From an uncultured Nitrospiraceae bacterium (GTDB lineage: Bacteria > Nitrospirota > Thermodesulfovibrionia > Thermodesulfovibrionales > SM23-35), in contig CAVSHB010000002.1 of the NCBI GenBank assembly GCA_963727775.1, positions 320,001 through 384,000 on the forward strand: a stretch of DNA of 64,000 bases, written 5' to 3'. A program made the translations under genes and the position numbers. A model generated the notes under the pieces. That model saw only the letters and a program-made list of their open reading frames with translations, was not told the DNA's origin and searched no databases. Below are positions 41,989 through 61,998 of the stretch, piece after piece; the first letter of the stretch is position 1; the number at the start of each line of letters is the position of its first letter.

Positions 41989-44900
41989 ATGAACTGGAGG
42001 GATAAATTGAAAAATACAGATTACCAAATGCAGAGGGGAGGACATAATTTTGCAGGCCATAGGCTGAGAGCGGCTGCGAGCATATTGCTATTTATTATTT
42101 GTTCCGTTTCTTTAAGCGGATTATACGGCTGTTCGGGGGATCATTCGCCTTCGAAGGCGTCCACTGTTGTGGGTGTTGAGAATATAGACGGCAAGGTGAA
42201 GATAGCCAAACTCGTCGGATCCCAAATCCCCATTGCCAATGGATTAGGCGATCAGCAGAACCCGCATGTCATATACCTCCCGAATAAGGACCTCTGGTTT
42301 ACGGTTTATGAGGACTGGGGCAACCTGAGTTCAGGCTCGGACATTAAGGGACGTTTTTTGAAAAATGACGGTACGTTTTGCGGTAGTGAGGTGACTATTA
42401 CCAATGCGCAAGGCGACCAGACAGCCCCATGGGCTGCATACCGTGAAAAGGATATCCTTGCATCTCCAACAGGGCACGACACGATAGTTGTGACGTGGCA
42501 GGATACGAGAGGGACCGGTACCGGAGGCTATGTTTATTACAAGGCAATTAATATCGACAGCCCTGCTTTTAATGTGAATGACTGTTCAGGTTCTTCCCTG
42601 GGAAGCGATACCGCGATATTATATCACCAGATTTCTCAATATGTAGACACGACTCCAGCCCCGGTGACATCAACAGTCACAGCTACGCAGACTATTGCTC
42701 TTGGAGATGGCAAGACAACTGCGTTTATTGCAACTCTAAAAAATACGCCCATAGTGCCGACAAGCGTTAACGTTACTGCTGGAAGTATTAGTCTAAATGA
42801 TACAGGTGGTTCCAGTGGCCTCAACCAAACTTCTCCACCTCCAACATGTGCATTCGGCACGGTAGATTATTCGACCGGTGCTTTGACACTTAACTTCTCT
42901 ACTACTGGTCTATGTACTGCACCTGCTTTCGGCACACCGATAATAGTAAGTTATACATATATTGCTACTACACCGTCGCCATTTTCAGTTGCTACTTCTC
43001 CGCTGGGTGATACCCTCCTTTCAAGGAAATTACCGAGAATCAGCTATGATCCGGGGAGGGACAGGTTCTGGGTTGTATGGAATGAGTCACGAAGCACATT
43101 GCAGAGGATATCCGAGATATGTTTCGGTCTCGCTATCGCCACGTGGGATTTCGGAGATAATTCATCTTTCCCTGGCTATGTGATGCTCGATGGCGTAACA
43201 TTGGCGGAACTGCCGAACGATATAGGGACTAATGGCGCAGATATAATAAGGAACGGGCTGGTGAGAACGAACCGGATTATCAGCGCCGGCCTTGCTGCAT
43301 TGACAGAGACGTATGATTACGAATTTTTTACCGGACTCAACAATATCGCCAATGCAACCGATACAACAGGACCTGAGACCTTTATGGCATGGGAAGGCAC
43401 AAGGCAAAAAGGGGAAATGGTCTGTACATGTACCGATAAGAACGGCAACGGCGTCTGCGACACGGGTGAAGTCATAACTTCTACATTTACTGTATCTCCT
43501 TTTGATGATGGGTTCAATCATGCATACGGCCTTTTTGATAAGGAAATTTCCAAAACTTCCATACTTTCGAAGAGACTGGATACCTCGAATACTACAACAG
43601 CTCATAATCCCGCTATAGGCTTTGATCCTGTAACAAAGAGATTTCTTACAGCATGGGAAGATCTGCGCGACGGTGCGACCAAAAAGATATGGGGGCAGCT
43701 TGTTTTTTCGGGCGGCGGCCTCTATAACGGAAATTTTCTTATAAGCTTCCAGGATACTACAGGCAGCGGAAAGCAGGACGCCAATATAGCGAGTTCAAAC
43801 CAGACAAAGCCTTTCATATCATATGACTCAGTGAACCAGAGGTACTTTGTTGCATGGGAGGACGGCAGAAACGGGACTGTATCACTGGAAAACCTTGATA
43901 TTTTTGGGCAGTATGTGGATACAGAGGGTTCTTTACGCGGAACGAACTATGCCATAACAACAGCGCCTTCAAACCAGTTAAGTCCGGCCATTGCTTATAA
44001 TTCAAAGGAGAATCTTTTTCTTGCCGTCTGGAAAGACGCGCAGAATAACTCCATACCATTCGAAGGCTCTGACATATACGGCCAGAGGTTTTCCTTAGGC
44101 CAGCCGCAACTGACGCTTTTAAACCTAGATAATACGACGTTGTCGCCGCCCCTGCTCAACTTCGGATCTGTTACGGTCGGGCAGTCTTCTACAATGTCGT
44201 TTAAGGTAAGAAACACCGGAGATACAAACCTCAAGATAGACTGCCTGTCACCTTTCCCTGCGGGTTCTCCTTTTTCCCACCAGACCCTGACTTCGGAACT
44301 TCAGACATGTGAAGGCACGTATGCTTCGGGTACGTTTCTTCAGATTATCCCTGGGGCGGAGCTTACATTTACGGTGCAATTCTCGCCAGCGTCTCAGAGC
44401 ACCTTTACTTCAAGTTTTACTATCCAGTCCGACGGAGAGATTCAGACCGTAAACGTTCAGGGTGGAGGAGTGACGCCGAGCATTGTCGTAAGCTCAAACA
44501 ATATTACATTTGGCAATGTGCATGTCGGACAGAGCACAGACCGGCCACTGAGGATAACCAACAATGGGACTGTCAGCTATCAGATAACGAACATTACAGG
44601 TGTAAGTGATCCATTCAGCATCGTATCGCCTCCGACATTCCCTCTGACCCTGAACGCCGGACAGTTTTTGGACCTGACTTTGCGTTTTACTCCTTCACAA
44701 TCAGGCGGTTTCAACGGCCAGATGAATATCCAGACGAACCTCCAGGGAGTCGGCCAGACAGTGCAACTCTCAGCCACCGGTACAGCGCCTGTATTATCTG
44801 TTTCAACAATAAGTCTTGATTACGGGGCTATAACTGTAGGTACTAACTCCGACCAGAATATAACCCTCAGCAATACAGGAAATGAGATCCTCACTATAAA

Positions 44901-47900
44901 TACGCTCAGCATTCCGGGCAGTTCAGGGTTCAGTGTTGTCGGCGCCGTATTGCCTATCAGCATCAGCCCGGGCAGTTCCCAGCCGATTACCGTAAGGTTC
45001 TCCCCGACTGATGTAGTTAGTTACAGCAGCGCATTGTCCATCCAGAGCAATGGAGGCAACCAGACAGTAAATTTGGCCGGGCAGGGCGCGGGAGGGAAGA
45101 TTTCGGTGTCTCCGGCCCAGGTGGACTTTCAGACCGTTGCAGTCGGCGCGTCAAAGACCGTAGCCGTCACTGTTTCAAATACGGGAAATGCGCCGATGAG
45201 CATAACGGGAATCACAAGCCCGCCTCTATCTACGCCGTTCAGCCTGATATTTACCGGCACGCCCACAATACAGCTTTTGCCTGGCACAAGCTATACAATT
45301 CTGGCAGTGTTCAGCCCTACAGCCGAAGGCACATTTAATAACAATACTTTTGTCGTCTCTACAAATGCGGTCAACACTTTAACAGGCGAAACTATAAAAG
45401 GCCAAGCGACGATTAAACTTCAGGGTGCTGCCGTAGTGCCGAAAGTTATTATTACCCCATCGTCGGTTGTTTTCCCTGATACCGCTGTGAACCAGATACA
45501 GTCCACCAATATTTCGATTAAGAATAACAGCCCTATCCCGGTCAAAATAAATGCTTTCAGTTTGCCTCAATCAGCATCTTTTGGTACGCTTTTTCAAGTC
45601 TTTAATATGTCGAGTGGGTCCCCTGTTTTATTGAAAGCAACCGATACATTTACCTTGCAGCCAGGTACGACATTGAATTTCGTGATAACGTTCCAGCCGC
45701 CTCAAACAGGTACTTTTAGCTCTACTTTCGGGATCCTTTTCGATTTCGCTTTGTCGCCGACTTATGTGCAAATAAGCGGGACTTCATCGGCGAGCATGAG
45801 CGTGACGCCTGCAGGCAGTGTCCTCGATTTCGGAACTGTTAAAGTCGGATCAACGAAAGACTTGGGCGTCACTGTTGCAAATACCGGTAAGTCAGTATTT
45901 AATTATCAGATTATAGGGTTGACTTCACCTTTTGTTGAGCCCATTTTTGTCTCTCTTCAACCAGTATCTCCGGGGCAACAGGACAGTCAAACAATTAGCT
46001 TCGCTCCTTCAGCGCGCGGGACATACCAACAGACATTGACTATTATTACTGACCAACAGGGGCTTAGCCAGACAATAACAGTGAAAGGGCAGGCAGTAGC
46101 GCCTATCCTGAGGGTCGAGCCTCTGAGTGTAGATTTCGGTTCGGTAACAGTTGGGTCAACTGCAACGCAAAACATCACACTATTTAACGATGGTGACGGG
46201 GACATGAATATCACAAGCTGCGGCTCTCCTCCTGACGGTTTTTCAATAAGCACATGTCCGTCTACCATACCTGCCGGTGCGAACGCGAAGCTGACTATTA
46301 CGTTCAAGCCGACAGATGCAATAGTGAATTCCGGGACAATGGATATTCAGACCGATGGAGGGACTAAGACTATTACTCTAACAGGAACAGGCCAGGGAGG
46401 AAAGATAAGCCTTTCTCAGGAGCAGATCGACTTCGGGACAGTAGCTCAAAATGCAACCGGCACAATCCCGTTAACCGTTACAAACACAGGCAATGGGCCT
46501 TTGAATATCACGAACATAACAAGTCCTACATCGCCCTTCAGCGTTAGCTTTGTAGGTACGGCACCGATAAAACTTCTGCCCAATACAACTTTTACAATTA
46601 ATGTCAACTTCAATCCGATAACTGCAGCTAATTATAGCTCGTCGTTTGTAATACAGACGGACGGGATTAACGGCAACAAAACTGTCAACCTTCAGGGCAC
46701 AGGTGTGTTACCGGCTATCAGCGTAAACCCTTCGCCTATAGTATTCACCGATACAGGCGTCGGCCTAACCCAGTCCCAAAATCTTTTTATCAAAAACAAT
46801 GGGACGCTGCCTGTTACCATAACGAGCTTTGATTCCCCTATTGCGCCATTTACGATTTCAGGGTTACCTACAGTGCCGTTTTCACTTAACGCCGGCGCAA
46901 CGTTAAGTCTTGTTGCGCAGTTTGCTCCGACGACTGCAGGGAGTTTCAGTTCCTCGCTTGGTATCCTTTTTGATACTGCGACGATGCCGACACTTGTCAA
47001 CATGACCGGCACTTCTTCAAATCCGGCAGGTAATATAATCTTTCAGCAGGGAGGTTCACTGATAACATCCGTGGGCTTTGGCAATGTACTGAAAGGGACT
47101 CCGAGCACAACACATCTAAGTATAATGAACACCGGCTCAATAACAAGATACGTCAATACTGTTACTCTGTCAGATCCTGCTTTTATGACGACTCTGAATG
47201 CACCGTTTACTTTAAATAGCGGAGAAACAAAATATTTTGATGTGATCTTCAATCCTACAGCGATACAGTCTTACTCTGCTACTCTGACATTGACGGATGC
47301 ATCGAATAATACGCAGCAGTTAAGCCTCACCGGGGCAGGTTCGTCGATCAGCGTAGGAGTCGATCCAGACTTTCCAGGGACAGTAACCTTCTTTACGGCG
47401 CTTACTTCATCACAACTGCCGGTATCCTCAAAACCGGCCAATTTCAATATCAGCAACGCGGCAGAATTTGTGATAGAAGGTGTTAATCCGGGTTCTTCGG
47501 TCTATGTGAGCATAACATTTAGTAGCCTGCCGGCGTCCCCTGTCTTCTATAAGGTCGTTGGGAACACATGGACAAAGCTTACTGACTATAGTCTGCAAAA
47601 TAATGTGCTGACCTACAGCATAACTGATAAGATCAGCATAACTGATAATAATGGTCCATTTGACAGTGACCCGACACCTGGTAAAATACAAGATCCGATT
47701 GTTGCCGGCAGCACAACCGGCGGTGGCGGCGGCGGTGGTGCTATCCATAACTCAGGCGGCGGCGGTTGTTTCATAGCAACGGCAGCATATGGCTCATACC
47801 TTGACGCGCACGTAATGGTCCTCAGGGAATTCAGAGACAAGTATCTTTTGACCAATGCGCCGGGTAAAATATTTGTAGCGCTGTATTACAAATATTCCCC

Positions 47901-48063
47901 GCCTGTAGCTGATTTTATCAGGGAGCACGAAATGTTAAGGACGGCGACAAGATTTGTACTGACGCCGATAGTTTATGGCGTAAAATACCCGTTGCCGGCA
48001 ATGGGGTTACTGTTCTTCAGCATCTCATTTTTCGGCATCAGGAAACGGAGGAGAGATTCTTAA
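41989..48063 (+). CDS. Giant surface protein: propeller-like N-region, 10 ASH/choice-of-anchor-D Ig repeats, choice-of-anchor-U-like domain, CFI-box-CTERM
   Basis: Lipobox LYGC; repeated DFG.V.VG....I.N.G units; C-terminal [14 protein letters not shown]...LR.FRD..L...G..FV..YY..SPP.A, then TM and RKRRR. TTG 42007 (GGAGG SD) is a likely alternative start. Confidence 0.88.
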
Positions 48064-48443: not shown

Positions 48444-49322
48444 TTGAAATCAAGCCTTTTTTCACATAGAAATATTTTTTATCTGAACGCGCTCGTAGGT
48501 GTAGTCCTTGTCATAGCAACTCTTTTTTTTATGCGGGATATTATTTCAGTCTATGCCGGCAAACAAAAAATCCTTAAGAGAGATGTCCCGGCGTCTAAAA
48601 ATACGCTGACCGGCAGGCAAAAAATGCAGCTTACAGATTATGCTTCGATAATGAAAAATAACCCTTTCGGTTTTCCGGGAGGTGAATTAAAGCCCCTAAC
48701 AGCTTCTTCGACGGAGGCCGATACCCGGCGTGCAGATATTCATCTCCTCGGCACGATAGTAGGACCGAAGGACCTCAGTTACGGCGTTTTTAAAAGCAGC
48801 TCAGGACCGCAGGAACTGTTCAAGGTCGGAGACTCTGTATTCGGTATCGGTAAATTGAGCAAAGTGGAGAGAGACAAGGTGATTATAAGACAGGGGGGTA
48901 AGGCAATAGAGGTACCCATTGAAGATGTGAAGGTGGAAGAGATTAAACAACCGGGCGCCGGAGGGTCACCATTCACCTCTTCTTTTGCCCAAAAGGTGGG
49001 GAAAGATACATATATGGTCGACCAGCGGAATTTACAACAGGCGATCGCCAACCCCGGACAGATAATGACTGACGCAAGGCTCAGGCCGAATACTGTTAAC
49101 GGTAAAGAGGAAGGGTTTATGTTGAGCGAAGTCAGGCAGGGAGGGATTTACAATAGCCTCGGGCTTCAGAACGGCGACGTGCTTTTGAGGATCAACGAGT
49201 ACGACATATCTAATCCGGAAAGGGCCCTACAGGCATTTACCGCACTGAAAGGCATGGACAGGGTGCAGATTGATTTGATCAGAGATGGAGCACGGATGAC
49301 AATGACTTACCAGATAAAGTAA
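48444..49322 (+). CDS. gspC: Type II secretion protein GspC (HR + PDZ)
   Basis: TM, NNPFG, LLGT.V, GLQNGDVLLRIN PDZ domain. Confidence 0.92.
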   Translation: MKSSLFSHRNIFYLNALVGVVLVIATLFFMRDIISVYAGKQKILKRDVPASKNTLTGRQKMQLTDYASIMKNNPFGFPGGELKPLTASSTEADTRRADIHLLGTIVGPKDLSYGVFKSSSGPQELFKVGDSVFGIGKLSKVERDKVIIRQGGKAIEVPIEDVKVEEIKQPGAGGSPFTSSFAQKVGKDTYMVDQRNLQQAIANPGQIMTDARLRPNTVNGKEEGFMLSEVRQGGIYNSLGLQNGDVLLRINEYDISNPERALQAFTALKGMDRVQIDLIRDGARMTMTYQIK

Positions 49323-49336
49323 TATAAGGCTATTAT

Positions 49337-51589
49337 ATGAAAAAGTTAGCGATCTTTGTTCTCATGGTTTTTTCTGTTTTTATCCTCAGGTCAAATGCGT
49401 CATGCGCTCCTGTAAATGCTCCTGCAGCAACGGCTGATCAAACCGCGGAAAAATCTGCTGAAGCGTCTCTGAGTGAAGTCTCCGTCCGGGAATCGGTCCA
49501 TCCTGAGAAAGAGGGCATCAAGGACAAGAAAGTTACTTTTAACTTTGTTGATGTTGATCTCTCGGCCATAACAAAATTTATCAGTGAGATCACCGGTAAA
49601 AATTTTATCTTCGATGAAAAAGTAAAAGGCAAGATAACAATAATCGCTCCTTCAAAGCTGTCGGTCCAGGATGCATACAGCCTTTTTACTTCAGTGCTGG
49701 AGCTTAAAGGGTTCACGATTGTTCCTTCGGGCGTCGCCGTATATAAGATTGTGCCCGCCATAGAGGCGAAACAACGAGGTATGCAGATTTCTACGGGAAG
49801 AGTTCCTGTTAATGAAAGTTATACGGCGCGATTGATTCCCATAAAATATATATCTTCCGACGACGCGCTCCGTTTCCTTCAGCCGATCGTTTCAAAGGAC
49901 GGCCATATATCCGCCTTTGGACCGGGAAACCTCTTGTTGGTGATTGATTCAGGACTGAACCTGGAGAAGGTCCGCTCCATTCTTGAAGTGATAGACCAGC
50001 CTTTATTGAGGGAGGAGCCCGAGATTGTTCTCCTTAAATATGCGAGTGCGGAAGTTATCGCGAGGATATTAAACGAAGGAATAAGTTACGGCAAAAGCAG
50101 ACCGGGATCAGGGCAAGTGGCCAAATCCGAAGAAGTGAAGGTAGTCCCCGACCAAAGGCTGAACGCCGTAGTTATATTCGGAGATAAACTCGTGAGGGAG
50201 TCGATTAAGGGGCTTGTCGCCCTTCTTGATATCCCCGCACCCGGGGCGCAGGGACGTATAAACGTATGTTTTCTCGAAAATGCTGATGCGACGGAATTAT
50301 CAAAGGTCTTGGAAGGGATGTTGAAAGGGACCCCGGTAAAACAAACCGCTACAGCCGCAGCGGGGAGCCAGGCTGTTACGCCCTTTGAAGCCGGAGGAGG
50401 AATAGTCATTACGCCTGATAAGGCAACAAATTCACTTGTGATAGTTGCATCGCCCGCCGACTACCAGAATCTTATCCAGGTAGTAAAACAGCTCGACCGC
50501 AGAAGGAAACAGGTTTACGTCGAAGGAATGATTGTAGAGGCATCGATTGATAAAGTGCAGGATCTTGGATTGAAATGGAGGATTACCGCCCAAAAAGGAG
50601 GAGCTCCTGTAGCAATAGGCGGTTTTGGAACTATCGACTCCTCTTCCGTACAGGGTATCCTTTCCGGTCTATCCGGTATGACCGTCGGTGGTATGGGAAA
50701 CTTTATCAATGTTCCTTTTACAACGGTCGGGTCGGATGGCACAGTCACAAATTCGACCCTTACAGTTCCCGGTTTTTCAGCGTTGTTCAGCATGCAGGAA
50801 TTCAAGGATGCAATTAATGTCCTTTCAACACCGCAGATCCTGACGTCTGATAATAAAGAGGCGGAAATAATTGTCGGCGAAAACGTGCCTTTGATTTCCA
50901 AGCAAGAAGCTAATGCGGCACAACCGCAAGCTCTCTTTACCGATATAGAAAGAAAAGATGTCGGTGTCATCTTGAAGCTTACTCCGCAGATTACGGAAGG
51001 TGATTATGTGAAACTTGATCTCTATCAGGAGATTACAGCTGTCGAACAGGGACAGGCAAATATTATAGCTACAGTGGGCCCGAACTTGTCAAAACGCTCA
51101 ACAAGGACTTCTGTAGTTGTAAAAGACAATCAGACAGTTATTATCGGCGGGCTCATACAGGAAAGGGTTGAAGAGACTGTGACCAAGATCCCTTTCTTAG
51201 GAGACATACCGGGGCTTGGGCTGCTTTTCAAAAACAAATCAAAAGAGAAAACGAAAACGAACCTGCTCGTATTTTTGACGCCGCATATTGTGAAAGAAGC
51301 GGAACAGCTTGCGAAACTTACAGACAGGAAAAAAGTTGAATTTGCGAGGACTGAGGACACGTACATACAGGGAGAGTTGCTTGTGAAGTTCAGGGAAGGA
51401 ATTACCGGAGAGAGGATGACCGAAATACTCTCCGGCGAAGGGGCAACTGTGATTTCTTTATCAAAGCTCCAGGGACTTTACCATATAAGCCTGAAGAAAG
51501 GGCAGGATGTTGAAGATGCCGTCAAGATATTCAATGCCTATAAAGAAGTGGAATACGCGGAACCTAACTATATGATGAAGATAAAATGA
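49337..51589 (+). CDS. gspD: Type II secretion secretin GspD with a C-terminal subtilase-propeptide-like domain
   Basis: TFNFVDVDL..ITGKNFI N0, N-domains, QVYVEG.IVE, NVLSTP, NLLVFLTPHIV; extra C-terminal GELLVKF...EVEYAEPNY. Confidence 0.95.
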   Translation: MKKLAIFVLMVFSVFILRSNASCAPVNAPAATADQTAEKSAEASLSEVSVRESVHPEKEGIKDKKVTFNFVDVDLSAITKFISEITGKNFIFDEKVKGKITIIAPSKLSVQDAYSLFTSVLELKGFTIVPSGVAVYKIVPAIEAKQRGMQISTGRVPVNESYTARLIPIKYISSDDALRFLQPIVSKDGHISAFGPGNLLLVIDSGLNLEKVRSILEVIDQPLLREEPEIVLLKYASAEVIARILNEGISYGKSRPGSGQVAKSEEVKVVPDQRLNAVVIFGDKLVRESIKGLVALLDIPAPGAQGRINVCFLENADATELSKVLEGMLKGTPVKQTATAAAGSQAVTPFEAGGGIVITPDKATNSLVIVASPADYQNLIQVVKQLDRRRKQVYVEGMIVEASIDKVQDLGLKWRITAQKGGAPVAIGGFGTIDSSSVQGILSGLSGMTVGGMGNFINVPFTTVGSDGTVTNSTLTVPGFSALFSMQEFKDAINVLSTPQILTSDNKEAEIIVGENVPLISKQEANAAQPQALFTDIERKDVGVILKLTPQITEGDYVKLDLYQEITAVEQGQANIIATVGPNLSKRSTRTSVVVKDNQTVIIGGLIQERVEETVTKIPFLGDIPGLGLLFKNKSKEKTKTNLLVFLTPHIVKEAEQLAKLTDRKKVEFARTEDTYIQGELLVKFREGITGERMTEILSGEGATVISLSKLQGLYHISLKKGQDVEDAVKIFNAYKEVEYAEPNYMMKIK

Positions 51590-51673: not shown

Positions 51674-53194
51674 ATGGAACATATTGAAGTTATAAAAGAG
51701 GAAGACATAGAGGTTTCCATCCTTAAGAATATCCCGCTTAGTTTTGTAAAAAACAACCAAATATTTCCTATGAAGATAGATAATTCCGAACTGGTTGGAG
51801 CTGTTGCCGACGATAAGGGGGTGCTTGCTCTCTCTGAGGCGTCGAAAATGTTCGGCCTGAAGCCGCGGGCGTTAAAGGCGTCTGCCGGGGTCATCCTCGA
51901 CGCGATCAACAAGTTCTACGGAAACATGGGGTCTGCTGAAGAAGTGATGGATACCATAACTGGAGAGGACCTTTCCTCCGTTGCCACGGCATTTGAGGCC
52001 CCCAAAGACCTGCTTGAATTGACTGAAGAGGCGCCTATCATAAGGCTCCTTAATGCCTTGCTTCTGCAGGCAGTCAAAGAGAGGGCAAGTGACATCCACA
52101 TCGAGCCTTACGAAAAAGAGCTCGATGTAAGACTACGCGTCGATGGTGTGCTTCATAAGGTGCTGACACCGCCGAAGATCATTCAAGATGCATTAATCAG
52201 CAGAATAAAAATTATGTCCAATCTTGATATAGCGGAAAAAAGATTACCACAGGATGGAAGGATACGGCTTCTGCTCGGGGGAAGAGATATAGACATCAGG
52301 GTATCGGTCATCCCCACTTCTCATGGCGAGCGGGCGGTGCTCAGACTATTGGACAGAAAACAGGGCCTTCTGGGTTTATGGGAAGTCGGGTTTGACAAGA
52401 ATGACGAAAAGAAACTCGAAGAATATCTTCGGAGACCCGACGGCATCATACTTGTAACGGGCCCTACAGGCAGCGGTAAAACTACAACCCTCTACGCTGC
52501 ATTGAACAGGATACATACGGAAGAAAAGAACATCATAACAGTTGAAGACCCGATTGAATATCAATTGAAAGGCATCGGCCAGGTCCACGTGAACCCGAGA
52601 ATAGGGCTGACATTCGCGTCGGGACTGAGGTCGATTTTAAGACAGGACCCGGATGTTATTATGGTCGGAGAAATAAGAGACCTCGAGACTGCCGAGATAG
52701 CGATGCAGGCATCTCTCACCGGTCATCTGGTCTTAAGTACCCTTCATACAAATGACGCGCCGAGTGCGCTGGTAAGACTCATCGACATGGGCATAGAGCC
52801 TTTTTTGGTCGCCTCATCTCTGAGTGTTGTTCTGGCGCAGAGGCTTGTAAGGTCAATTTGTCTTCATTGTAAAGTATCTTATAGTCCGTCCGAGCTTGAA
52901 AGGTCTTACTTCAACAAACCGCCTGAAGTTTTATATCGAGGGACCGGATGCGATAAGTGCAGCAATAAAGGTTATTTCGGAAGGATAGGCATATTTGAGC
53001 TCCTTGCAATAGATAATGAAATACGGCCGATGATTACCGATAAGATTGATTCTCAGAGCGTAAAGAACCATGCGCTTTCCAGGGGGATGAAAACCCTTCG
53101 CCAGGACGGTCTCGAAAAGGTCATCGGCGGCGTTACAACCCTTGAAGAGGTTTTGAGGGTCACGCAAAAAGATTATGCCGATATTTCAATATAA
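51674..53194 (+). CDS. gspE: Type II secretion ATPase GspE
   Basis: ASDIHIEP, GPTGSGKTT, RQDPDVIMVGEIRD, CxxC/CxxC zinc site. Confidence 0.96.
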   Translation: MEHIEVIKEEDIEVSILKNIPLSFVKNNQIFPMKIDNSELVGAVADDKGVLALSEASKMFGLKPRALKASAGVILDAINKFYGNMGSAEEVMDTITGEDLSSVATAFEAPKDLLELTEEAPIIRLLNALLLQAVKERASDIHIEPYEKELDVRLRVDGVLHKVLTPPKIIQDALISRIKIMSNLDIAEKRLPQDGRIRLLLGGRDIDIRVSVIPTSHGERAVLRLLDRKQGLLGLWEVGFDKNDEKKLEEYLRRPDGIILVTGPTGSGKTTTLYAALNRIHTEEKNIITVEDPIEYQLKGIGQVHVNPRIGLTFASGLRSILRQDPDVIMVGEIRDLETAEIAMQASLTGHLVLSTLHTNDAPSALVRLIDMGIEPFLVASSLSVVLAQRLVRSICLHCKVSYSPSELERSYFNKPPEVLYRGTGCDKCSNKGYFGRIGIFELLAIDNEIRPMITDKIDSQSVKNHALSRGMKTLRQDGLEKVIGGVTTLEEVLRVTQKDYADISI

Positions 53195-54350
53195 AGGATA
53201 CAGGACTGACGGGTCTGAAATAGCCGGAACCATCGAAGCGAACAGCCAAAAGGACGCCGTATTAAGGCTAAAGGAATCGGGACTCTATCCAAAGGATGTA
53301 AAAGAAGCAATATATAAAGGCAAAGCAGGCTTTTTCCGCAGGCCCGATATTTCACTCCTTCCATCTACAACAAGACAATTATCCACACTCCTTTCTTCAG
53401 GGGTCACTTTAATGGAGGCGTTAAGTTCCATCTCTGAAGAAAATAAAGGTTTCTGGAAGAATATGTTGGTTGATATTAAAGAACGGGTCGAGGCCGGTTC
53501 AAGCTTTTCAAAGGCATTGGAGGAATATGGAAATATCTTCCCGGAATTTTACGTGAATATGGTTGCCGCAGGAGAGGCAAGCGGGACCCTTGATAAGGTC
53601 CTCATACGCATGGCTGATTTCCTGGAAGACCAGGACAACCTGAAATCAAAAGTGAGAACTTCGATGGTTTATCCCGTCTTCATGATCTGCGTGGGGTTCA
53701 TTGTCCTTTCTTTTTTATTCGCATTTGTCATACCGAAGATTACAAAGATTTTCAAGGACACCGGCAGCGCCCTTCCCCTTATCACAACAATCCTTATATT
53801 TGTCAGTGATATTTTTCAGCGCTACTGGTGGCTTTTGATCGGGTTGGTTATAGGAGGGTTTTACGGTCTCAGGAGGATGAAAGAAAAGAATGCTTTGTTT
53901 ATTGACGGTCTCATTTTGCGGATGCCGGGCAATGTATTGCAGAGCCTTTATTTCGGAAGGTTCACACGGACATTAGGCTTCTTGCTGGAGGGAGGCCTTC
54001 CTGTTCTCAAAGCGCTTGATCTTGCTGCAAAATCAATCGGCAATGAGGTGATCGAGGCGCGGGTGCTCGAAGCCGGGAAACGGGTCGCGGAGGGGGCGAG
54101 GCTTTCTGCATCTCTGGAGGGGTTCCCGCCTGTGCTGTTGCAGCTTATTTCGACAGGGGAGAAAAGCGGGCAGTTGGTCCAAATATTGGGAAATGCGGCT
54201 GACTCGTATGAGGAAGAATTCTCAAGGAGAGTGCAGAAGGCTTTGTCTCTCCTTGAGCCCGGGATGATTTTGGTTATGGGATTCGTCGTAGGGCTTATAG
54301 TTCTCGCTATCCTTTTGCCGATATTCCAGTTGAACCAGCTGATAAAATGA
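53175..54350 (+). CDS. gspF: Type II secretion inner membrane platform GspF
   Basis: RQLSTLL.SG, AGEASG.L, YP, GE.SG.L, LEP. Confidence 0.95.
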   Translation: MPIFQYKGYRTDGSEIAGTIEANSQKDAVLRLKESGLYPKDVKEAIYKGKAGFFRRPDISLLPSTTRQLSTLLSSGVTLMEALSSISEENKGFWKNMLVDIKERVEAGSSFSKALEEYGNIFPEFYVNMVAAGEASGTLDKVLIRMADFLEDQDNLKSKVRTSMVYPVFMICVGFIVLSFLFAFVIPKITKIFKDTGSALPLITTILIFVSDIFQRYWWLLIGLVIGGFYGLRRMKEKNALFIDGLILRMPGNVLQSLYFGRFTRTLGFLLEGGLPVLKALDLAAKSIGNEVIEARVLEAGKRVAEGARLSASLEGFPPVLLQLISTGEKSGQLVQILGNAADSYEEEFSRRVQKALSLLEPGMILVMGFVVGLIVLAILLPIFQLNQLIK

Positions 54351-54360
54351 ATATGGTAGA

Positions 54361-54470
54361 AAAGCCGGGTCATCGTATTTGCGCTCATTCTCGTCCCCGA
54401 AAGCTTTCGGGGCCTCCGAGGTTTTCGCTTATCAGCGAAAAAAACCGCTCAAATATTATAACCCGGCTTT
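54361..54470. repeat. Structured intergenic palindromic element between gspF and gspG
   Basis: Outer inverted repeat aaagccgggt/acccggcttt encloses ccccgaaagctttcgggg and ttttcgct-tatc-agcgaaaa. Confidence 0.7.
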
Positions 54471-54490
54471 CGTGAAAATAGGAGGAACGA

Positions 54491-54919
54491 ATGAAAAATA
54501 AAGGGTTTACGCTTCTCGAAATTATCGTGGTGGTTTTCATACTAAGTCTTCTGGTGGCTATTGTGGCGCCTAAGATAATCGGTAGGACTGATGATGCGCG
54601 CATTGCAGAGGCCAAGGTCCAGATCAGGAATTTTGAGACGGCACTCAAGCTTTTTAAGATCGACAACGGCTTTTATCCAAGCACAGAGCAAGGGCTTGCG
54701 TCATTAGTGGAAAAACCGAACACAGGACAGATTCCTCAGAAATACAGAGAGGGCGGGTACCTTGAACAGAAAAAGATCCCACTTGACCCTTGGGGCAACC
54801 CCTATGTGTATATATCTCCGGGTGTATACGGTGACTTTGATATCATGAGTTATGGAGCGGATGGAAAAGAAGGCGGGGAAGGCAAGAATGCCGATATCAA
54901 GAGCTGGGATTTGCAATAG
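54491..54919 (+). CDS. gspG: Major pseudopilin GspG
   Basis: GFTLLE prepilin site, YPSTEQGL..LV, DPWGNPY, SYGADG.EGGEG..ADI. Confidence 0.97.
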   Translation: MKNKGFTLLEIIVVVFILSLLVAIVAPKIIGRTDDARIAEAKVQIRNFETALKLFKIDNGFYPSTEQGLASLVEKPNTGQIPQKYREGGYLEQKKIPLDPWGNPYVYISPGVYGDFDIMSYGADGKEGGEGKNADIKSWDLQ

Positions 54920-55394
54920 CCGCGGGTTCACTCTCCTTGAACTCATCGCTGTAATGTTCATTATTTCTGTGGTTGCGGCCATTGCTCTGCCGTCTTTTAT
55001 CGGGGTTGGAGAAAGCAAAGTCAAATCAGAGGCACGGGAAATGGCCTCAATATTGACTTATCTGAACGATAGCGCAGCCTCAAGGAAAGAGACATTTGTC
55101 ATGAGATTTGATCTTGATAATAATACGGTATTCTGGAAAGGGCCTGAGGGAGAGAAGACAAAAAAGTTTGATGATATGACAGGAGTGACCACTCAAGCGG
55201 CCGGGACCGTCTCCAAAGGAGAACTGACCTTCTTATTCGGGCCGTTTGGAATTGGTGAAAATATCAGTGTTCATATGAGCAAGGGAGACCAGAGCATGAC
55301 AATCACTTTGAACCATTTAAGCGGAAGGGTGAAGATAAAGGATGACGCAGGAAGCAGTGAGGATGAAAACGGGGCCCGCAAAGAAGGGCAATAA
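54888..55394 (+). CDS. gspH: Minor pseudopilin GspH
   Basis: RGFTLLEL type IV prepilin motif; position after gspG. The ORF track starts at 54852. Confidence 0.85.
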   Translation: MPISRAGICNSRGFTLLELIAVMFIISVVAAIALPSFIGVGESKVKSEAREMASILTYLNDSAASRKETFVMRFDLDNNTVFWKGPEGEKTKKFDDMTGVTTQAAGTVSKGELTFLFGPFGIGENISVHMSKGDQSMTITLNHLSGRVKIKDDAGSSEDENGARKEGQ

Positions 55395-55755
55395 GTTTGT
55401 CCTTGATCCTTCTTTTTTTATTCACCGGGAAAATGGTTTTTCTTTGCTTGAAGTGTTGATCGCTCTTGCGATTGTCGGCGGTCTTTTGGTGACCCTCATA
55501 TATACTTTGAACTATCAGTTGAGTCTCGTGGACAGGCAGGAGGTCATTACTGTCGCGACCTTTCTCGCAAAGAGTAAAATGGCCGATTTAGAAAAGAGTC
55601 CCGAAAATAAGAAAGGGGATTTTGAAACTCCTTACGATGGCTATTCATACGAGACCTCTATTAAGGACTCGCCATACGTCGGCATATCTGAAATTATGGT
55701 TTCGGTAAAAGGAGGCAGGGAAGAGGTAAAATTGAATGAGTTTGTTTTTAAATAA
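55342..55755 (+). CDS. gspI: Minor pseudopilin GspI
   Basis: GFSLLEVLIALAI; position in the operon. Confidence 0.85.
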   Translation: MTQEAVRMKTGPAKKGNKFVLDPSFFIHRENGFSLLEVLIALAIVGGLLVTLIYTLNYQLSLVDRQEVITVATFLAKSKMADLEKSPENKKGDFETPYDGYSYETSIKDSPYVGISEIMVSVKGGREEVKLNEFVFK

Positions 55756-56380
55756 AAATCATCGTATATCTCTCCATACAGCTATTGCCGGGAACGAGCG
55801 AAACGGTGGAGGTTTCACCCTTATCGAAATCCTTGTGGCTTTTACAATTCTTTCAATAGTTCTGGCCGCTGTCTACAGCACTTTTTTCTTGAGCCACAAG
55901 GCAATGGACGGCATGGATGAATACATGTTAAAACTCCGGGAATCACGGAGGGCGATTGACATCCTAAAGCGCGAACTCGATTCTGCTTTCTATCGGCGTG
56001 ACGATCAGAGTACATTGTTTAAGATATATGACAAGGACATATTCGGCAAACAGGCGTCTCAGCTTGCTTTTACGGCTTTTTCAACACTAAGGCCGGGGGT
56101 TTCGAGAATCGTTTATTATATCGAAGATAAAGACGGGAAATTAAATCTTCTTAAGAAAATAGAGTCGCCTTTTCAGAAGGAAGAAACCGACGGGGTGGAA
56201 ATAATAGAGGACCTGGACGCGTTCACCGTTGAAGCAAAATACGGTGATACGTGGGTAAAAACATGGGATGCGGACATGAATAACGACACCCCGGAAGAAA
56301 TCAGAATAAGCCTCTCCGTGATGATAAAGGATAAAAAAATGACTTTGTCCGATGTATCAAAACCAATGGTCAAATCGTAA
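55736..56380 (+). CDS. gspJ: Minor pseudopilin GspJ
   Basis: GFTLIEILVA, W..TW....P..IRI. Confidence 0.87.
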   Translation: MSLFLNKNHRISLHTAIAGNERNGGGFTLIEILVAFTILSIVLAAVYSTFFLSHKAMDGMDEYMLKLRESRRAIDILKRELDSAFYRRDDQSTLFKIYDKDIFGKQASQLAFTAFSTLRPGVSRIVYYIEDKDGKLNLLKKIESPFQKEETDGVEIIEDLDAFTVEAKYGDTWVKTWDADMNNDTPEEIRISLSVMIKDKKMTLSDVSKPMVKS

Positions 56381-56385
56381 TACAC

Positions 56386-57306
56386 ATGACACAAGGACAA
56401 TCAGATCAGCAAAGTTATATGGCAAACCATAAGGGAATAGCTTTAGTTATTGTCCTTCTGGCATTGGCCCTTATCACCGCCATGGTAGTCGAGTTTTCGT
56501 ATGCAGTATATACCGGCACCAATGATCTTTATAATTGGCGCGATGGCCAGCGCCTCTCTATAATGGCAAGATCAGGAATAAATGTGACTATAAAGTTATT
56601 GCCGTATGTGCTTGCAGAGCAAAAATATTCGCAGGGCGTGATGGAGCGGCCTATAGAGAACCCTTTTGAAGATTTCAATGGAACCATAACAGTGAGGGTT
56701 GAGGATGAGAGTTCCAAGCTCAGCCTGAAATTCTTAGTAGATGATTTCGGGAATCATAATAATGTCGCTTATGATGAATTCAAGAGACTTCTAAGCGTGC
56801 TTTCGTTGAATGAAAAGATTGCGGATAGAGTTGTCGACTGGATTGTGAAAAAGAGAGAAACCGGATTCTCTGCCTCCGGAGAAAACAATAAGCATTATAG
56901 ACTCCGCAGTGTCGATGAACTCCTAATGATAGATGGAATAGACAGGAACGCTTATGATAAATTATTGCCATATGTTACTGTTTATGGGCCGGATATGACT
57001 GATTACTCTATTAATGTTAACGGCGCCGGGAAGCCCTTATTGATGAGCATATTGCACGCCAATGGATCGTTTCCCATAACAGAGGACCGAGCTGATAGAA
57101 TAATTAAATATAGAGAGCTCTCTCCTTTTTTATTCTGGGGAGATTTTAATAATTTTGCAGGGACATCATTTTCAGCAGACCGGATCAAGACTATGGGTAC
57201 AGATTTTTCAATAAAAGCGACCGCCTCTTCCGGCGGAGTAAAAAGGATAATCGAATCAGTTTTAAATACATCAGCCGGTAAAATTGAATACTGGAAGGAA
57301 TATTAA
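56386..57306 (+). CDS. gspK: Minor pseudopilin GspK
   Basis: KGIALVIVL, DESSK, DW, EL..I.GI, INVN.A. Confidence 0.9.
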   Translation: MTQGQSDQQSYMANHKGIALVIVLLALALITAMVVEFSYAVYTGTNDLYNWRDGQRLSIMARSGINVTIKLLPYVLAEQKYSQGVMERPIENPFEDFNGTITVRVEDESSKLSLKFLVDDFGNHNNVAYDEFKRLLSVLSLNEKIADRVVDWIVKKRETGFSASGENNKHYRLRSVDELLMIDGIDRNAYDKLLPYVTVYGPDMTDYSINVNGAGKPLLMSILHANGSFPITEDRADRIIKYRELSPFLFWGDFNNFAGTSFSADRIKTMGTDFSIKATASSGGVKRIIESVLNTSAGKIEYWKEY

Positions 57307-58370
57307 TGGGCAAGGCTTTGTTTATCGATATAAAGGAAAAAGAACTCAGCACATATCTGTTTGATATCAAAGTCAACAAATATGAAATAGGGGAAATCAG
57401 GAAATATCCCGTCTCTGAAAAATTTGATTTCTCGTTTGACATCGGGACCGAGAAGATTGAAAACGCCTATGTAAGCCTCCCATTGAGCAGCCTGAACTTC
57501 AGGGTCATTGAACTGCCGTTTTCCGATAAAGACAGGATTAGGGAAGTGCTTCCGTTTGAGCTCGACGGGATGATATTGGGCGGGACTGACACAGTAGTCT
57601 TTGACAGTGTGATCGTAGGAACATCCGACGATAAGCAACAGGTGCTTGCGGCATATATTGATAAAAAAGATCTCCGGCATCTGCTCGGAAAATTAAAAAC
57701 ATATCATATTGATCCTGTCTTTATTACGTCATTGGAGCTTAAAAACATTCTGAATGATTTTTCTATGGGAAGTCTTCTTTCCCCTCCTGAGCTTGAGGAC
57801 AAAGACAGGATAGAACTGGCTTCCCGGGAAATAAAAGCCCCAGTGATCGACCTGAGAAGGCACGAGTTTTCATACACACGGGAACGTGAGAAGACAAAAA
57901 AGAAGCTGAGGTTAACGGCTGCGCTTCTGGCGTTGCTTGCGCTTGTTCTGTCCGCAGACTTATTGATGAAGATTGTGTCTGCGCGGAGTGAGGCGGCATT
58001 ATTAAAGAACGAGATGCGGAAACAGTATCAGGAAGTCTTTCCCGGAGAGAAAAATATCATGAATGAGCTTTATCAGTTTAAATCCCATATGAAGGAGTTG
58101 AAAAGTAAAGAGGATATTTTCATTGGCGTTGATCCTCTCAGACTGCTTTTAAGTCTCTCCCGTTTGGAGAAACAAGGTGTTGCTTTCAATGAGATAACTG
58201 CGGAAAAAGGGAATATCACCTTGAAAGGTGAGACTGCGTCCTTAAGCGAAGTCCAGCAGATAAAGGGGAAGCTGGAAAGTATTTTTAATGAGGTGAATAT
58301 ATCCGATTCAAAATCCTCTGCGCAGGGCAGGATGCTGTTTACCATAACAGCAAAGGAGAAAAGGTCTTGA
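57306..58370 (+). CDS. gspL: Type II secretion protein GspL
   Basis: LPF....I..VLPFEL cytoplasmic domain, DLR..EF, TM, ferredoxin-like periplasmic domain. Confidence 0.87.
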   Translation: MGKALFIDIKEKELSTYLFDIKVNKYEIGEIRKYPVSEKFDFSFDIGTEKIENAYVSLPLSSLNFRVIELPFSDKDRIREVLPFELDGMILGGTDTVVFDSVIVGTSDDKQQVLAAYIDKKDLRHLLGKLKTYHIDPVFITSLELKNILNDFSMGSLLSPPELEDKDRIELASREIKAPVIDLRRHEFSYTREREKTKKKLRLTAALLALLALVLSADLLMKIVSARSEAALLKNEMRKQYQEVFPGEKNIMNELYQFKSHMKELKSKEDIFIGVDPLRLLLSLSRLEKQGVAFNEITAEKGNITLKGETASLSEVQQIKGKLESIFNEVNISDSKSSAQGRMLFTITAKEKRS

Positions 58371-58876
58371 TACCAGCGCTGGTGAAGGACAGAAGGATCC
58401 AGGTTGCATCGAGTTGTTTGATCGCTTTTGTGCTTGCTGTAATGTTCGGAGTGCATTTGCTTTCATCCGAGAGAAAAGAACTCAAACAACTGAATGAACA
58501 GAGAAAAGAAATGCTGCTGCTGAAAGATGAATTCATATCTTTGAAACAGAGAATTAATGTTGTGGAAAGCAAGAAGAACCTGTCAAATGCTCAGGGTATT
58601 GTTCAGGCTGTTGATGAGGTTTTTCTGTCTGTCGGGCTGAAGGATAAGGTCAAGTCGGTTAAATCTACGGGGAAGAGAGAAGTCAAGGACGGATTTGAAG
58701 AAGAGGCCGATATTTACATCGAAAAAGTAAGCATGAATGAAATGGCAAATATTTTTTACAGGATCGAGAACGCGCCGGTTATTCTCACGATCAAAAAAGC
58801 CGCAATAAAAAAATCCTTTGAAAACCCCGAGCTCCTGAACATATCCCTCGCTCTTTCTTTTCTGAAAACGAAGTGA
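58367..58876 (+). CDS. gspM: Type II secretion protein GspM
   Basis: TM plus coiled coil; position between gspL and gspN. Confidence 0.75.
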   Translation: MIPALVKDRRIQVASSCLIAFVLAVMFGVHLLSSERKELKQLNEQRKEMLLLKDEFISLKQRINVVESKKNLSNAQGIVQAVDEVFLSVGLKDKVKSVKSTGKREVKDGFEEEADIYIEKVSMNEMANIFYRIENAPVILTIKKAAIKKSFENPELLNISLALSFLKTK

Positions 58877-59652
58877 AAAAAATCCTCATTGCACTGGTTT
58901 TTATCATGGTTATTGTCTGTAGCTTATGGATAATGTTCCCTGCAAATTCTATCCAGTCTATTATTGAGGATTCTGTTACGGACAAGAAATTTAATTTAGA
59001 GATCAAAGGTCTTAAAAAAGGGTTGTTTTATAATCTGAGCGCCGACAGTATAATATTGAAGAGCTCCGGCCTAAAGGTAGTCTCCTTAACCGGTATTCAC
59101 GGAAATATCGATCCTATGAGTCTCGCGGTGTTGCGTCCAAAGGTAATGATGAATGGGAATATCGGCGGGGGGAATTTTTCAGGCACTGTCGGTTTTGCAA
59201 AAAACAACGTGCAGGTGAACATTAATTTTAAGCAGGTCGGCATAAATGAGGCGCCGTTTTTCAGCCAAATCGGTATACGCGGCGAAGGGACTGTTTCAGG
59301 TAAATTAGTTATGACGGACAATAAGGGGAATATTGGATTTGTTACGAAAGACGCAAACTTCGAGCAGGCGAAAATCGCCGGGGTCAGTGTGCCGCTGAAT
59401 CTTTTCCATGCTGTTTCAGGCATTGTCGACATAAACGGTAATCTGCTCAGTATTGGTTCTCTCTTCCTTGAAGGCAAGGATATCAGTGCGAGGCTAAAAG
59501 GTATAATAAAAGATACTGGTATGGACCTTAAGATGGAAATAATGCCCGGCAGATCTTTTGCTGAAAATCCATTATTCATTTCCGGACTCGAAAGATATAA
59601 AATTTCTCCGGGATATTATGTAATCCCTCTAAAGGGCAATCTGTCCCTCTGA
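58873..59652 (+). CDS. gspN: Type II secretion protein GspN
   Basis: N-terminal TM ending ..FP, beta-rich AsmA-like body, C-terminal L.G.L. Confidence 0.78.
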   Translation: MKKILIALVFIMVIVCSLWIMFPANSIQSIIEDSVTDKKFNLEIKGLKKGLFYNLSADSIILKSSGLKVVSLTGIHGNIDPMSLAVLRPKVMMNGNIGGGNFSGTVGFAKNNVQVNINFKQVGINEAPFFSQIGIRGEGTVSGKLVMTDNKGNIGFVTKDANFEQAKIAGVSVPLNLFHAVSGIVDINGNLLSIGSLFLEGKDISARLKGIIKDTGMDLKMEIMPGRSFAENPLFISGLERYKISPGYYVIPLKGNLSL

Positions 59653-59661
59653 GGAGATAGC

Positions 59662-61998
59662 ATGTCAAAGTATATACTGCTTGCACTTATCCTGCTGAGT
59701 CTTGTTTCATGCGGCGGGGATACGTCCGGACAAAAACCCTCAGCTTATAAAGAAGGTGAGATAATAGTTAAATTCAAATCAGGCGCGGATCCAACGCAAA
59801 GATATGTGGCGCATAAAGCTGCCGGAGCGAAATCGGTGAAGACCCTGGGTGATCAAAGGTTTGAAAGGGTCAAGCTGCCTCACGGCGTCACTGTTGCAGA
59901 GGCAATCAAAACGTATACAACGAACCCCGAGGTCGAATATGCCGAGCCTAACTATATTGTAAAGGCTTACAGATTGCCGAATGATGCGCGTTTTAATGAT
60001 TTGTGGGGACTTCATAATACCGGTCAGAACGTAAACGGTACCACGGGCACAGCCGGCGCGGATATCGATGCGACTGATGCATGGGATATCAGCGCGGGTT
60101 CTCCTTCCGTAATCGTTGCCGTCCTCGATACCGGCGTCGATTACAATCACCCCGACCTTAAAGACAATATCTGGAGAAATTCGGGAGAGACCAGTTGCAC
60201 CGACGGGATTGACAACGATAAAAACGGTTATATCGATGACTGTATCGGGTGGAATTTTTTGGAGTCCAATAATGACCCTGCGGACGATAACGGCCATGGT
60301 TCACACATTGCCGGTATTATTGGTGCCGTTGGGAATAATGCCTTAGGGGTTGCCGGGGTAAGCTGGTCTGTAAAGATTATGTCTCTGAAAGTGCTCGATA
60401 ATAATGGAGAGGGTGATATAGCTACTATCATAGAGGCGATATCATATGCTGCCGCAAAGAACGCCGGGATTATCAATATGAGTTTTGGAAGTACCGGGTT
60501 TTCGCAGTCTTTGTATGATACGATAGGAAAATATCCTAATATGCTTTTTGTCGCTGCTGCGGGCAATGAGGGGGCCAACAATGATCAGCCCTCCGTGGCT
60601 GATTATCCTGCGAGCTTCGGCCTGCCCAATATTATTTCAGTGGCTGCAACCGACCAGAACGATAACTTTACAAGTTTCTCTAATTACGGGGTTAAATCTG
60701 TTGATGTTGCTGCGCCGGGTACAGACATTCTCAGCACTATCCCGTCTTTCACTGCAGGAATTACATATAGCGGAACGTACAAGGTGGTTTATTTTTCTTT
60801 TGGCTTTGAAGGTATAGATGGCGCTTTATTGCGCGCGGACGTCATGCGAAGGGTGCTGGAGTTTAACGGTGTTTCACCGGGAGACGGTATTCTTCTCGTG
60901 GATGACGACGGCGGAGACACATATGAGACTTATTATAAGCAGGCCCTTGAGTATCTCGGATATTCGTATGATTATTACATGGTCCCCGTTAATGATGACG
61001 GCCCTGACGCAACCAAACTGAGACAGTATAAACTGGTGATCTGGTTTACAGGCAATGAGTACAGTCCAAACTCTCAAACGCCAACCAATGTGACCCCTAA
61101 TGATCAGGCAAACATCCAATCTTTCCTCGACAACGGAGGCAGGCTTTTTATATCCGGACAGGACATAGGATACGACATCGGTTCCACGAGCTTTTATAAG
61201 AACTATCTCCATGCGCGGTTTATCACTGATGATGCGAACGGATCATTCTACACAGGGCTTAATGACTTCGATGGCTTGTCTCTTGATCTTTCGTCGACAT
61301 ACGGTGACGGAGCGCGGAACCAGAGATCAATTGATGCGGTAAAGCCTGTGGACGGCTCTACGGCTTTTTACATTCCCTATAGCGCCGCCTACCAATTCTT
61401 TGACGGCACATCTATGTGTACGGCAATGGTCTCCGGTGTTGCGGCCCTCGTATCGTCTTATTACAGCGATTTCACCACAAGCCAGATAAAGGGCACGATT
61501 CTGCTTTCCGTTGATGGGCTACCGTCTTTGCAGGGAAGGATACTCTCAGGGGGAAGGGTAAATGTCTATAAGGCGTTGTCTTCACTCATCGCGCCGACTG
61601 ATCTGACCGCTGCGCTTTCCGGGAAACAGGTTGTGCTTGCATGGACAGATAATTCTTCCGGCGAGACGGGATTTTCTATCGAGAGAAAGGAGGCAGGAGG
61701 AAAGTACATCCAAATAGCCTCGGTGCCGTCAAACCAGACGAATTACACAGACGATGCTGTAAAAGCCGGTAAGGCTTATTCATACAGGGTAAAGGCATTT
61801 AATGCCGTCGCCGGTTCGTCATATACCAACGAAGCTTCTCAGAAAATACCCGGCGTCAGCTTCAGCGGAGGCGGCGGATGTTCCAGCGGTAAAACGCAAA
61901 ACGTTCAGACAGCTTTAGCAGACATGTCAGTGCTCTTTATGCCTTTAATGGTTGTCTTCATAATCAAAAGATCAGGAAAAGATTTAAAGAAACCATAA
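59662..61998 (+). CDS. S8 subtilase lipoprotein with propeptide, inserted domain, FN3 and a Gly-Gly-Cys C-terminal sorting signal
   Basis: Lipobox LVSC; triad VLDTG / HGSHIAG / GTSM; AAAGN; FN3 (WTDNS..E.GF.IER...YSYRV.A.N); GGGGC..TM..KR. Confidence 0.93.
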   Translation: MSKYILLALILLSLVSCGGDTSGQKPSAYKEGEIIVKFKSGADPTQRYVAHKAAGAKSVKTLGDQRFERVKLPHGVTVAEAIKTYTTNPEVEYAEPNYIVKAYRLPNDARFNDLWGLHNTGQNVNGTTGTAGADIDATDAWDISAGSPSVIVAVLDTGVDYNHPDLKDNIWRNSGETSCTDGIDNDKNGYIDDCIGWNFLESNNDPADDNGHGSHIAGIIGAVGNNALGVAGVSWSVKIMSLKVLDNNGEGDIATIIEAISYAAAKNAGIINMSFGSTGFSQSLYDTIGKYPNMLFVAAAGNEGANNDQPSVADYPASFGLPNIISVAATDQNDNFTSFSNYGVKSVDVAAPGTDILSTIPSFTAGITYSGTYKVVYFSFGFEGIDGALLRADVMRRVLEFNGVSPGDGILLVDDDGGDTYETYYKQALEYLGYSYDYYMVPVNDDGPDATKLRQYKLVIWFTGNEYSPNSQTPTNVTPNDQANIQSFLDNGGRLFISGQDIGYDIGSTSFYKNYLHARFITDDANGSFYTGLNDFDGLSLDLSSTYGDGARNQRSIDAVKPVDGSTAFYIPYSAAYQFFDGTSMCTAMVSGVAALVSSYYSDFTTSQIKGTILLSVDGLPSLQGRILSGGRVNVYKALSSLIAPTDLTAALSGKQVVLAWTDNSSGETGFSIERKEAGGKYIQIASVPSNQTNYTDDAVKAGKAYSYRVKAFNAVAGSSYTNEASQKIPGVSFSGGGGCSSGKTQNVQTALADMSVLFMPLMVVFIIKRSGKDLKKP

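Follow-up and report, generated by a model that had tools for sequence, protein, structure and literature searches.

The window (the whole stretch of 64,000 nucleotides that was analysed) holds pilMNOPQ, a gene for a large CFI-box-CTERM protein, the gspC-N operon of a type II secretion system (T2SS), an S8 subtilase gene and then aroC. Between 36366 and 63291 the type IV pilus genes pilMNOPQ, the T2SS operon, the S8 gene and aroC all run in the same direction, and several relatives likewise have pilQ upstream and aroC downstream. The following features were assigned:

41989..48063, + strand: 2024-aa protein with choice-of-anchor D/U and CFI-box-CTERM domains
48444..49322, + strand: gspC with a PDZ domain (Pfam/NCBIfam)
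49337..51589, + strand: gspD, T2SS secretin of 750 aa with N0, three Secretin_N repeats, a secretin domain and a C-terminal propeptide-like domain
51299..51352, + strand: predicted helix, GspD aa 655-672, the equivalent of the first S-domain helix in solved T2SS secretins (AlphaFold2 model)
51353..51589, + strand: propeptide/I9-like tail, GspD aa 673-750, up to the stop codon (PF22148, model pLDDT 91.4, fold matches)
51560..51568, + strand: E742-P743-N744, matched in the alignment to the subtilisin BPN' propeptide (1spb_P) by its helix-capping residues Glu69/Asp71
51584..51586, + strand: K750, the last GspD residue, aligned with the C-terminal (P1) residue of a propeptide (3bgo_P 77)
51674..59652, + strand: gspE, F, G, H, I, J, K, L, M and N
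59662..61998, + strand: S8 subtilase of 778 aa with its own prodomain, catalytic D156/H212/S584, a ~200-aa insert and fn3
59728..59970, + strand: prodomain built into the S8 (aa ~23-103), which has 34% identity with the GspD tail

Of the operon genes, gspE, gspG, gspL and gspN scored above their NCBIfam cut-offs, gspM gave a weak NCBIfam match, and gspF, gspH, gspI, gspJ and gspK were assigned by sequence features and gene order. The gspD reading frame (49337-51589) scored 527.7 bits with TIGR02517, against a cut-off of 351, and its product has the make-up of a T2SS secretin (N0, N repeats and a secretin domain, encoded within a gspC-N operon). In the S8 protein a lipobox-like Cys17 and a Gly-rich-Cys/hydrophobic/basic C-terminus can be read off the sequence. 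Its ~200-residue insert (60780-61390, S8 aa ~373-575) lies before the catalytic Ser, has no Pfam match, and is present in S8s encoded after gspN and absent from S8s encoded before gspC; the helix after the catalytic Ser584 (61405-61425, S8 aa 582-588) carries an Ala at a position that is Pro in at least 90% of 32 aligned relatives.

Several neighbouring genes deserve mention. The 2024-aa protein (41989-48063), encoded upstream of the PDZ-bearing GspC, contains many HYDIN/VesB-like Ig domains besides CFI-box-CTERM and is a probable surface cargo of the T2SS; in Vibrio, the Ig fold of VesB is described as a PDZ-dependent secretion signal (in the available text of PMC12369372). Directly before gspC, 48083-48391 encodes a 102-aa probable lipoprotein consisting of a lone DsbC N-terminal domain. 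Elsewhere, a D-Ala-D-Ala carboxypeptidase-like gene (16523-17647) forms an insertion in the cell-division cluster that separates mraY from murD.

The initial annotation proposed, from a hand-counted ungapped alignment to the prodomain of the S8 protease, that GspD ends in a subtilase propeptide domain. Both the alignment and the domain were borne out. BLASTP of GspD against the S8 returned the same ungapped alignment (25/73 identities, GspD 676-748 to S8 29-101, E 6e-09), and PF22148 (Fervidolysin N-terminal prodomain; cut-off 21 bits) matched both proteins, GspD over aa 666-744 with 53 bits and E 4.6e-14, and the S8 over aa 23-97 with 63 bits. In the whole genome, which is 96.8% complete, there are two PF22148 domains and one S8. 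Among the sequencing runs listed for this DNA there was no RNA run, and all shares were below 0.2. The GspD tail has no catalytic domain in cis, as it is followed by a stop codon and then gspE, and it is hence unlike an in-cis prodomain. PF22148 and the secretin domain occurred together in 120/120 relatives (those listed, of 492 in the protein database). Misassembly as the source of the fusion is ruled out, since the fusion is present in these relatives and in 119 genomes of the class (Thermodesulfovibrionia).

An AlphaFold2 model of the tail, made from 114 homologues, reached a pLDDT of 91.4 and has a four-strand, two-helix fold. With this model as query, Foldseek ranked the propeptide of subtilisin BPN' first (E 4.8e-3) and gave no match at E <0.001. 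VIA-align placed four propeptides together with the inhibitor POIA1 in its first five ranks, at Z 9.8-7.9 and with their C-termini in register: the best had Z 9.8 and rmsd 1.5 over 68 aligned residues, POIA1 had Z 7.9 and rmsd 2.6 over 68, and residues 6..78 of the model aligned to 3bgo_P 9..77 and to POIA1 (1v5i_B) 2..76. RRM domains also reached up to Z 7.9 against the model, and the fold alone is not specific for propeptides. Against solved structures, the tail searched as a single sequence had no relevant match, and searched as a profile it had only weak propeptide matches (E 0.006-0.07).

In a model of GspD 388-750 (mean pLDDT 71), the single helix 655-672 lies between the barrel and the tail, and the GspD profile matches solved T2SS secretins only as far as this helix; the tail therefore occupies the place of the pilotin-binding helix. 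In the Vibrio and E. coli secretins that helix is the distal helix of the S-domain, and some GspDs are pilotin-independent (both according to the accessible part of PMC6532946). GspD of the window has no distal S-domain helix for pilotin binding, only one helix and then the propeptide fold, which marks it as a variant. The initial placement of the tail at the S-domain position was thus correct for the distal end, the first S-domain helix being retained. No pilotin of the PulS/OutS (PF09691) or AspS (PF16549) families scored above the cut-off in the genome. The S-domain region is periplasmic in solved secretins, and the SPOR domain that follows the tail in some relatives agrees with a periplasmic C-terminus.

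Of 201 class genomes, 118 had a match that ran across the secretin end and the tail, and inspection showed one more to be fused; ten fetched GspDs had no tail. The tail is thus present in 119/129 GspDs checked, a count that stands apart from the remaining 72 genomes, which gave no GspD-level match with the query used. The suspicion that relatives might lack the fusion is answered by these 119 genomes. In the other classes of the phylum (266 genomes), no full-length match was found among the 150 of 325 matches listed. In the GspD tree (made with FastTree only, G362 left out) the fused/unfused label changes four times, which is compatible with one gain and a few losses, and the three tail losses that were checked are clean deletions. 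Two records titled Syntrophaceae have an eroded tail and SPOR-like domains and nest within the class tree, suggesting transfer. Four columns of the tail alignment are conserved at 90% or more, and the tail is duplicated in some GspDs. The fusion is old within the class. As for domain order, the GspDs of L154, P0087, P0076 and P0122 have two propeptide-like domains and then a SPOR domain, and that of L254:5775-8081 (G208) has a SPOR-like C-terminus and no propeptide-like domain.

In the subtilisin BPN' propeptide, Glu69 and Asp71 cap two helices of the catalytic domain (PMC6993865, in its available text). The corresponding pair, E742 and N/D744, is kept in 99/119 tails, and a hydrophobic P4 residue in 100/119. 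Ile, Leu or Met occupies P2 in 86/119 tails compared to 10/38 built-in prodomains. The chain stops exactly at P1 in 30/119 tails and adds four further residues or fewer in 71/119; by alignment of the model to solved propeptides, the C-terminus of GspD of the window reaches P1 and a hydrophobic P4 is present. In at least 12 relatives the tail runs on for another 160-310 residues, so a free C-terminus is not required. I9-type inhibitors have a hydrophobic plug at the beta-hairpin; at 708-712 of the tail hydrophobic residues are common, yet variable. The motif is eroded in some S8-bearing lineages (family f7).

We asked how closely the tail is linked to the S8 protease encoded beside it, which the initial annotation took to be its specific match. 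Of the 118 other fused loci, 51 reach past gspN, and an S8 gene is found there in 8/51 and is absent from 43/51; at the level of the locus the fusion thus occurs independently of a neighbouring S8. All 8 loci with an S8 after gspN belong to this bacterium's family, as do the 10 loci with an S8 upstream of gspD, and any S8 within the fetched stretch (up to 20 kb) was found in 14/118 other fused loci. Across the class, the link between the tail and an adjacent S8 is weak. The mean identity of the window's tail is 34% with S8 prodomains (best 41%), 37% with free copies and 43% with other tails, and its identity to the prodomain of the neighbouring S8 (34%) equals the S8 prodomain mean. Since this identity is no higher for the neighbour, the tail is not a copy made for the neighbouring protease. 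Prodomains of neighbouring S8s are likewise not consistently the closest to the tail (ranks 1-28 of 37-38), and a recent duplication of the neighbour's prodomain is rejected by the tree and the identities. What has lasted of the earlier interpretation is the homology, the fold, the S-domain position, the conservation and the retained capping residues; the specific match to the co-operonic S8 has not, as the tail resembles other prodomains equally well, belongs to a different subfamily, and in most loci has no adjacent S8.

Searched genome-wide at 1e-15, an S8 was detected in 100/119 fused genomes and none was found in 19/119. When ten of these 19 were searched again at E 0.1, there was no match in eight; one, the single-contig genome G106, had two weak matches that look like sedolisins by sequence, and one had an S8 broken by a run of N. 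S8 'absence' in draft genomes is uncertain, some cases being assembly gaps (G411). The motif was intact in 79/100 genomes with S8 compared to 8/19 without (Fisher p 0.003). With independent pairs (G362, G411 and G445 left out), motif and S8 changed in the same direction in 3 pairs and in the opposite direction in 1, with 10 unchanged (p 0.625). Co-evolution of the intact motif with S8 presence was therefore rejected, as the raw link vanishes in independent pairs.

A profile search with the tails retrieved 6412 proteins at E 0.001. Among the best 150 of these, 110 are 240 aa or shorter; ~15 of the 110 are GspD fragments (judged by eye), and most others consist of a signal peptide and a propeptide domain. 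These free copies mostly end 9-13 residues past the capping Glu. Tyr or Phe is found at position 715 in 114/119 tails and 7/8 free copies but in only 1/38 built-in prodomains. In the prodomain tree the tails stand apart from built-in prodomains, and 6/8 free copies nest among the tails with weak support; this was a quick tree of 83 columns and 85 rows (40/119 tails and 37/38 prodomains, one with an unknown residue being left out) in which 45/82 branches are open. From its sequence and this weakly supported tree, the tail appears to group with a widespread family of free secreted propeptides, not with built-in prodomains.

The surroundings of the free copies were compared as well. Among 80 metagenome loci, found with a pattern search that favours loci with two matches, a free copy is present in 17, and S8 adjoins it in 12, does not in 2, and 3 end too soon. 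Among 15 Nitrospirota loci (from short-ORF matches, most from one genus), 14 free copies, one of them broken, lie directly upstream of an S8 with its own prodomain; the 15th locus has a broken S8. Two Nitrospira-like loci plausibly represent the state before fusion: in L326:477-7499 a free copy and S8 pair lies between gspG-F-E and gspC, and in L280:96-4648 a free copy lies beside gspG-F-E, the S8 being truncated where the contig stops. The pair in L326 is followed by a hydrophobic ORF of 167 aa, which may be an intramembrane sorting protease. In six S8s (P0126, P0140, P0144, P0154, P0199 and P0246) a second propeptide-like domain is C-terminal, after CFI-box-CTERM, and these may be enzymes that release their own inhibitor. 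The hydrophobic end of CFI-box-CTERM in these six resembles a signal-peptidase site, and free proteins such as P0173 begin with a motif like this end. P0121 (942 aa), P0128 and P0124 match the tail profile in 6-10 stretches, and in some of these proteins no S8 domain was detected.

The class-wide variant of the T2SS secretin is real, and it is probably an inhibitor fusion, with a weaker link to a cognate protease than first proposed. We give roughly an even chance to the reading that the tail is a periplasmic subtilase inhibitor fused to the pore, likely catching secreted subtilases that are activated too early. This reading is favoured because the other settings of the subfamily found here are beside or inside a subtilase and because free propeptide mimics are proven inhibitors in eukaryotes (as reported in the accessible text of PMC6993865). 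The tails would line the outside of the secretin ring on its periplasmic wall, with each subunit contributing one at most. Through its beta-sheet and E742/N744 a tail would bind two surface helices of the mature subtilase and reach into the active site with its last residues; the bulky P2 residues would make it a poor substrate that resists cleavage. As the tail cannot share a site with the enzyme's own propeptide, it would compete for that site, ignore the zymogen and bind the matured enzyme only. In this way it could catch subtilases that lost their own propeptide before export and protect the pore and the envelope. Its origin would likely be a single fusion of a free inhibitor gene within the T2SS cluster. 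In this genome the sole candidate target is the S8 after gspN, but across the class no fixed neighbour would be the target. Against the inhibitor reading stand the retention of the tail where no S8 was found, the erosion of the motif where S8 is present, and the long C-terminal extensions. Propeptide inhibition can also be very selective (PMC10580911, in the part available), which is hard to square with a single conserved tail facing diverse S8s.

A possible though doubtful alternative is that the propeptide was co-opted as a replacement S-domain that stabilises the ring or binds a pilotin or envelope protein, no protease being involved. The place of the tail at the pilotin-binding helix (PMC6532946, available text) agrees with this, as do the lack of a PulS/OutS or AspS match above cut-off in the genome, the missing phylogenetic co-evolution, and the extra C-terminal modules (SPOR) common among these GspDs. 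It explains the points that stand against the inhibitor reading, but not the conserved capping pair and P4 or the frequent stop at P1, which a purely structural role does not predict. Moreover, the tail was cleanly lost more than once with the operon intact, and a conserved lipoprotein partner did not turn up: the DsbC_N lipoprotein encoded ahead of gspC had no BLAST match in the related loci compared.

The tethered inhibitor also has to be weighed against a docking or chaperone role, in which the tail recruits a subtilase or swaps with its propeptide and keeps it silent during export, making a protease-coupled T2SS. The S8 genes that flank the operon in this bacterium's family (8/51 after gspN, 10 upstream of gspD) are in line with it, and S8 is commoner in fused genomes (99/118) than in genomes without a GspD-level match (26/74), kin in this comparison not being independent. 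Export of C-terminally anchored proteins by the T2SS is documented (bioRxiv 2023.06.07.544157 and PMC12369372, each in its available text), and the C-terminal signal of the S8 resembles that of T2SS-dependent surface proteins (bioRxiv 2023.06.07.544157). We nevertheless consider a dock quite unlikely: the S8 already brings a prodomain of its own to occupy the site in question, and the neighbouring prodomains are not consistently the closest match of the tail. The secretin S-domain lies outside the channel and cargo enters through the N-domains; the tail, too, would lie outside the channel. That a ring of up to fifteen propeptide mimics docks and silences subtilases and hands them to the pore, coupling export and activation to the channel, is unlikely.

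The initial annotation also suggested that the lipidated S8 acts as the pilotin of the secretin or processes it at the tail, e.g. freeing a SPOR anchor in the longer forms. This gained no support and is very improbable: the lipobox-like Cys17, the lack of a known pilotin in the genome and the linker and SPOR placed directly after P1 in longer forms speak for it, but 43/51 informative fused loci have no S8 after gspN, some genomes have no detectable S8, maturation would part the lipid anchor from the catalytic domain, and the bulky P2 would disfavour cleavage. That the tail is a tolerated relic of an old fusion without current function is suggested by several losses and eroded copies, but is highly unlikely for a domain that is intact in 119/129 class GspDs, conserved at 90% or more in four columns and duplicated in some.

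To our knowledge, how diderm bacteria shield their periplasm and secretion machine from secreted proteases is poorly understood. If the tethered inhibitor is correct, an entire bacterial class would protect itself by means of a protease-inhibitor fold in its secretin, a strategy of which we found no published account. The fusion, which the initial annotation did not recognise as described, indeed did not appear in the literature searched (most subscription papers and supplements lay outside its scope), nor did the free bacterial family. The pair of secretin and PF22148 is already in precomputed Pfam annotation, and the fusion is unremarked rather than invisible. The fusion also links the secretin to a large family of free propeptide mimics in prokaryotes that has apparently gone unstudied. 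The 78 residues of the tail are predicted to fold by themselves, and GspD may be able to exchange its pilotin-binding end for a functional module.

The stand-alone subtilisin propeptide-like inhibitors of MEROPS I9 include POIA1, yeast PBI2, Arabidopsis SPI-1 and Plasmodium SUB1-ProM (PMC6993865, available text). The tail has their fold (a four-stranded sheet and two helices), their capping Glu with Asp/Asn (Glu and Asn in the window), a C-terminus placed for the active site, and no protease in the chain; SUB1-ProM, like the tail, departs from the S2 preference. Unlike these inhibitors, which are separate small gene products, the tail is bacterial and fused to an outer-membrane pore, where it is likely multivalent and tethered, and its inhibitory action is putative; free relatives of the tail exist. 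The tail is homologous to built-in prodomains (PF22148; fervidolysin 1R6V, subtilisin BPN' 1SPB) and 34% identical to that of its neighbour, but it is C-terminal, lacks a catalytic domain in cis and has its own signature (Tyr/Phe715 and bulky P2). It takes the same position as the S-domain in the PulS/OutS/AspS pilotin systems, with the first helix retained (PMC6532946, available text), whereas a globular propeptide fold stands in for the distal helix and no known pilotin was found in the genome. The potempins of Tannerella forsythia are envelope-tethered inhibitors that guard the cell from its own secreted proteases, PotC inhibiting the S8 mirolase (PMC9890683, in the text available), and the role proposed for the tail, protecting the envelope from the cell's own secreted proteases, would be similar. 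The potempins, however, are separate, small beta-barrel lipoproteins of unrelated fold that belong to type IX secretion, each encoded directly upstream of its one protease (same source), and the tail differs from them in fold and context. Finally, Legionella LspD is a secretin with an N-terminal SPOR domain (PMC6617341, available text). GspD resembles it in carrying an accessory periplasmic domain, and some relatives here add SPOR too, but the domain added to GspD has a protease-regulator fold and not a peptidoglycan-binding one.
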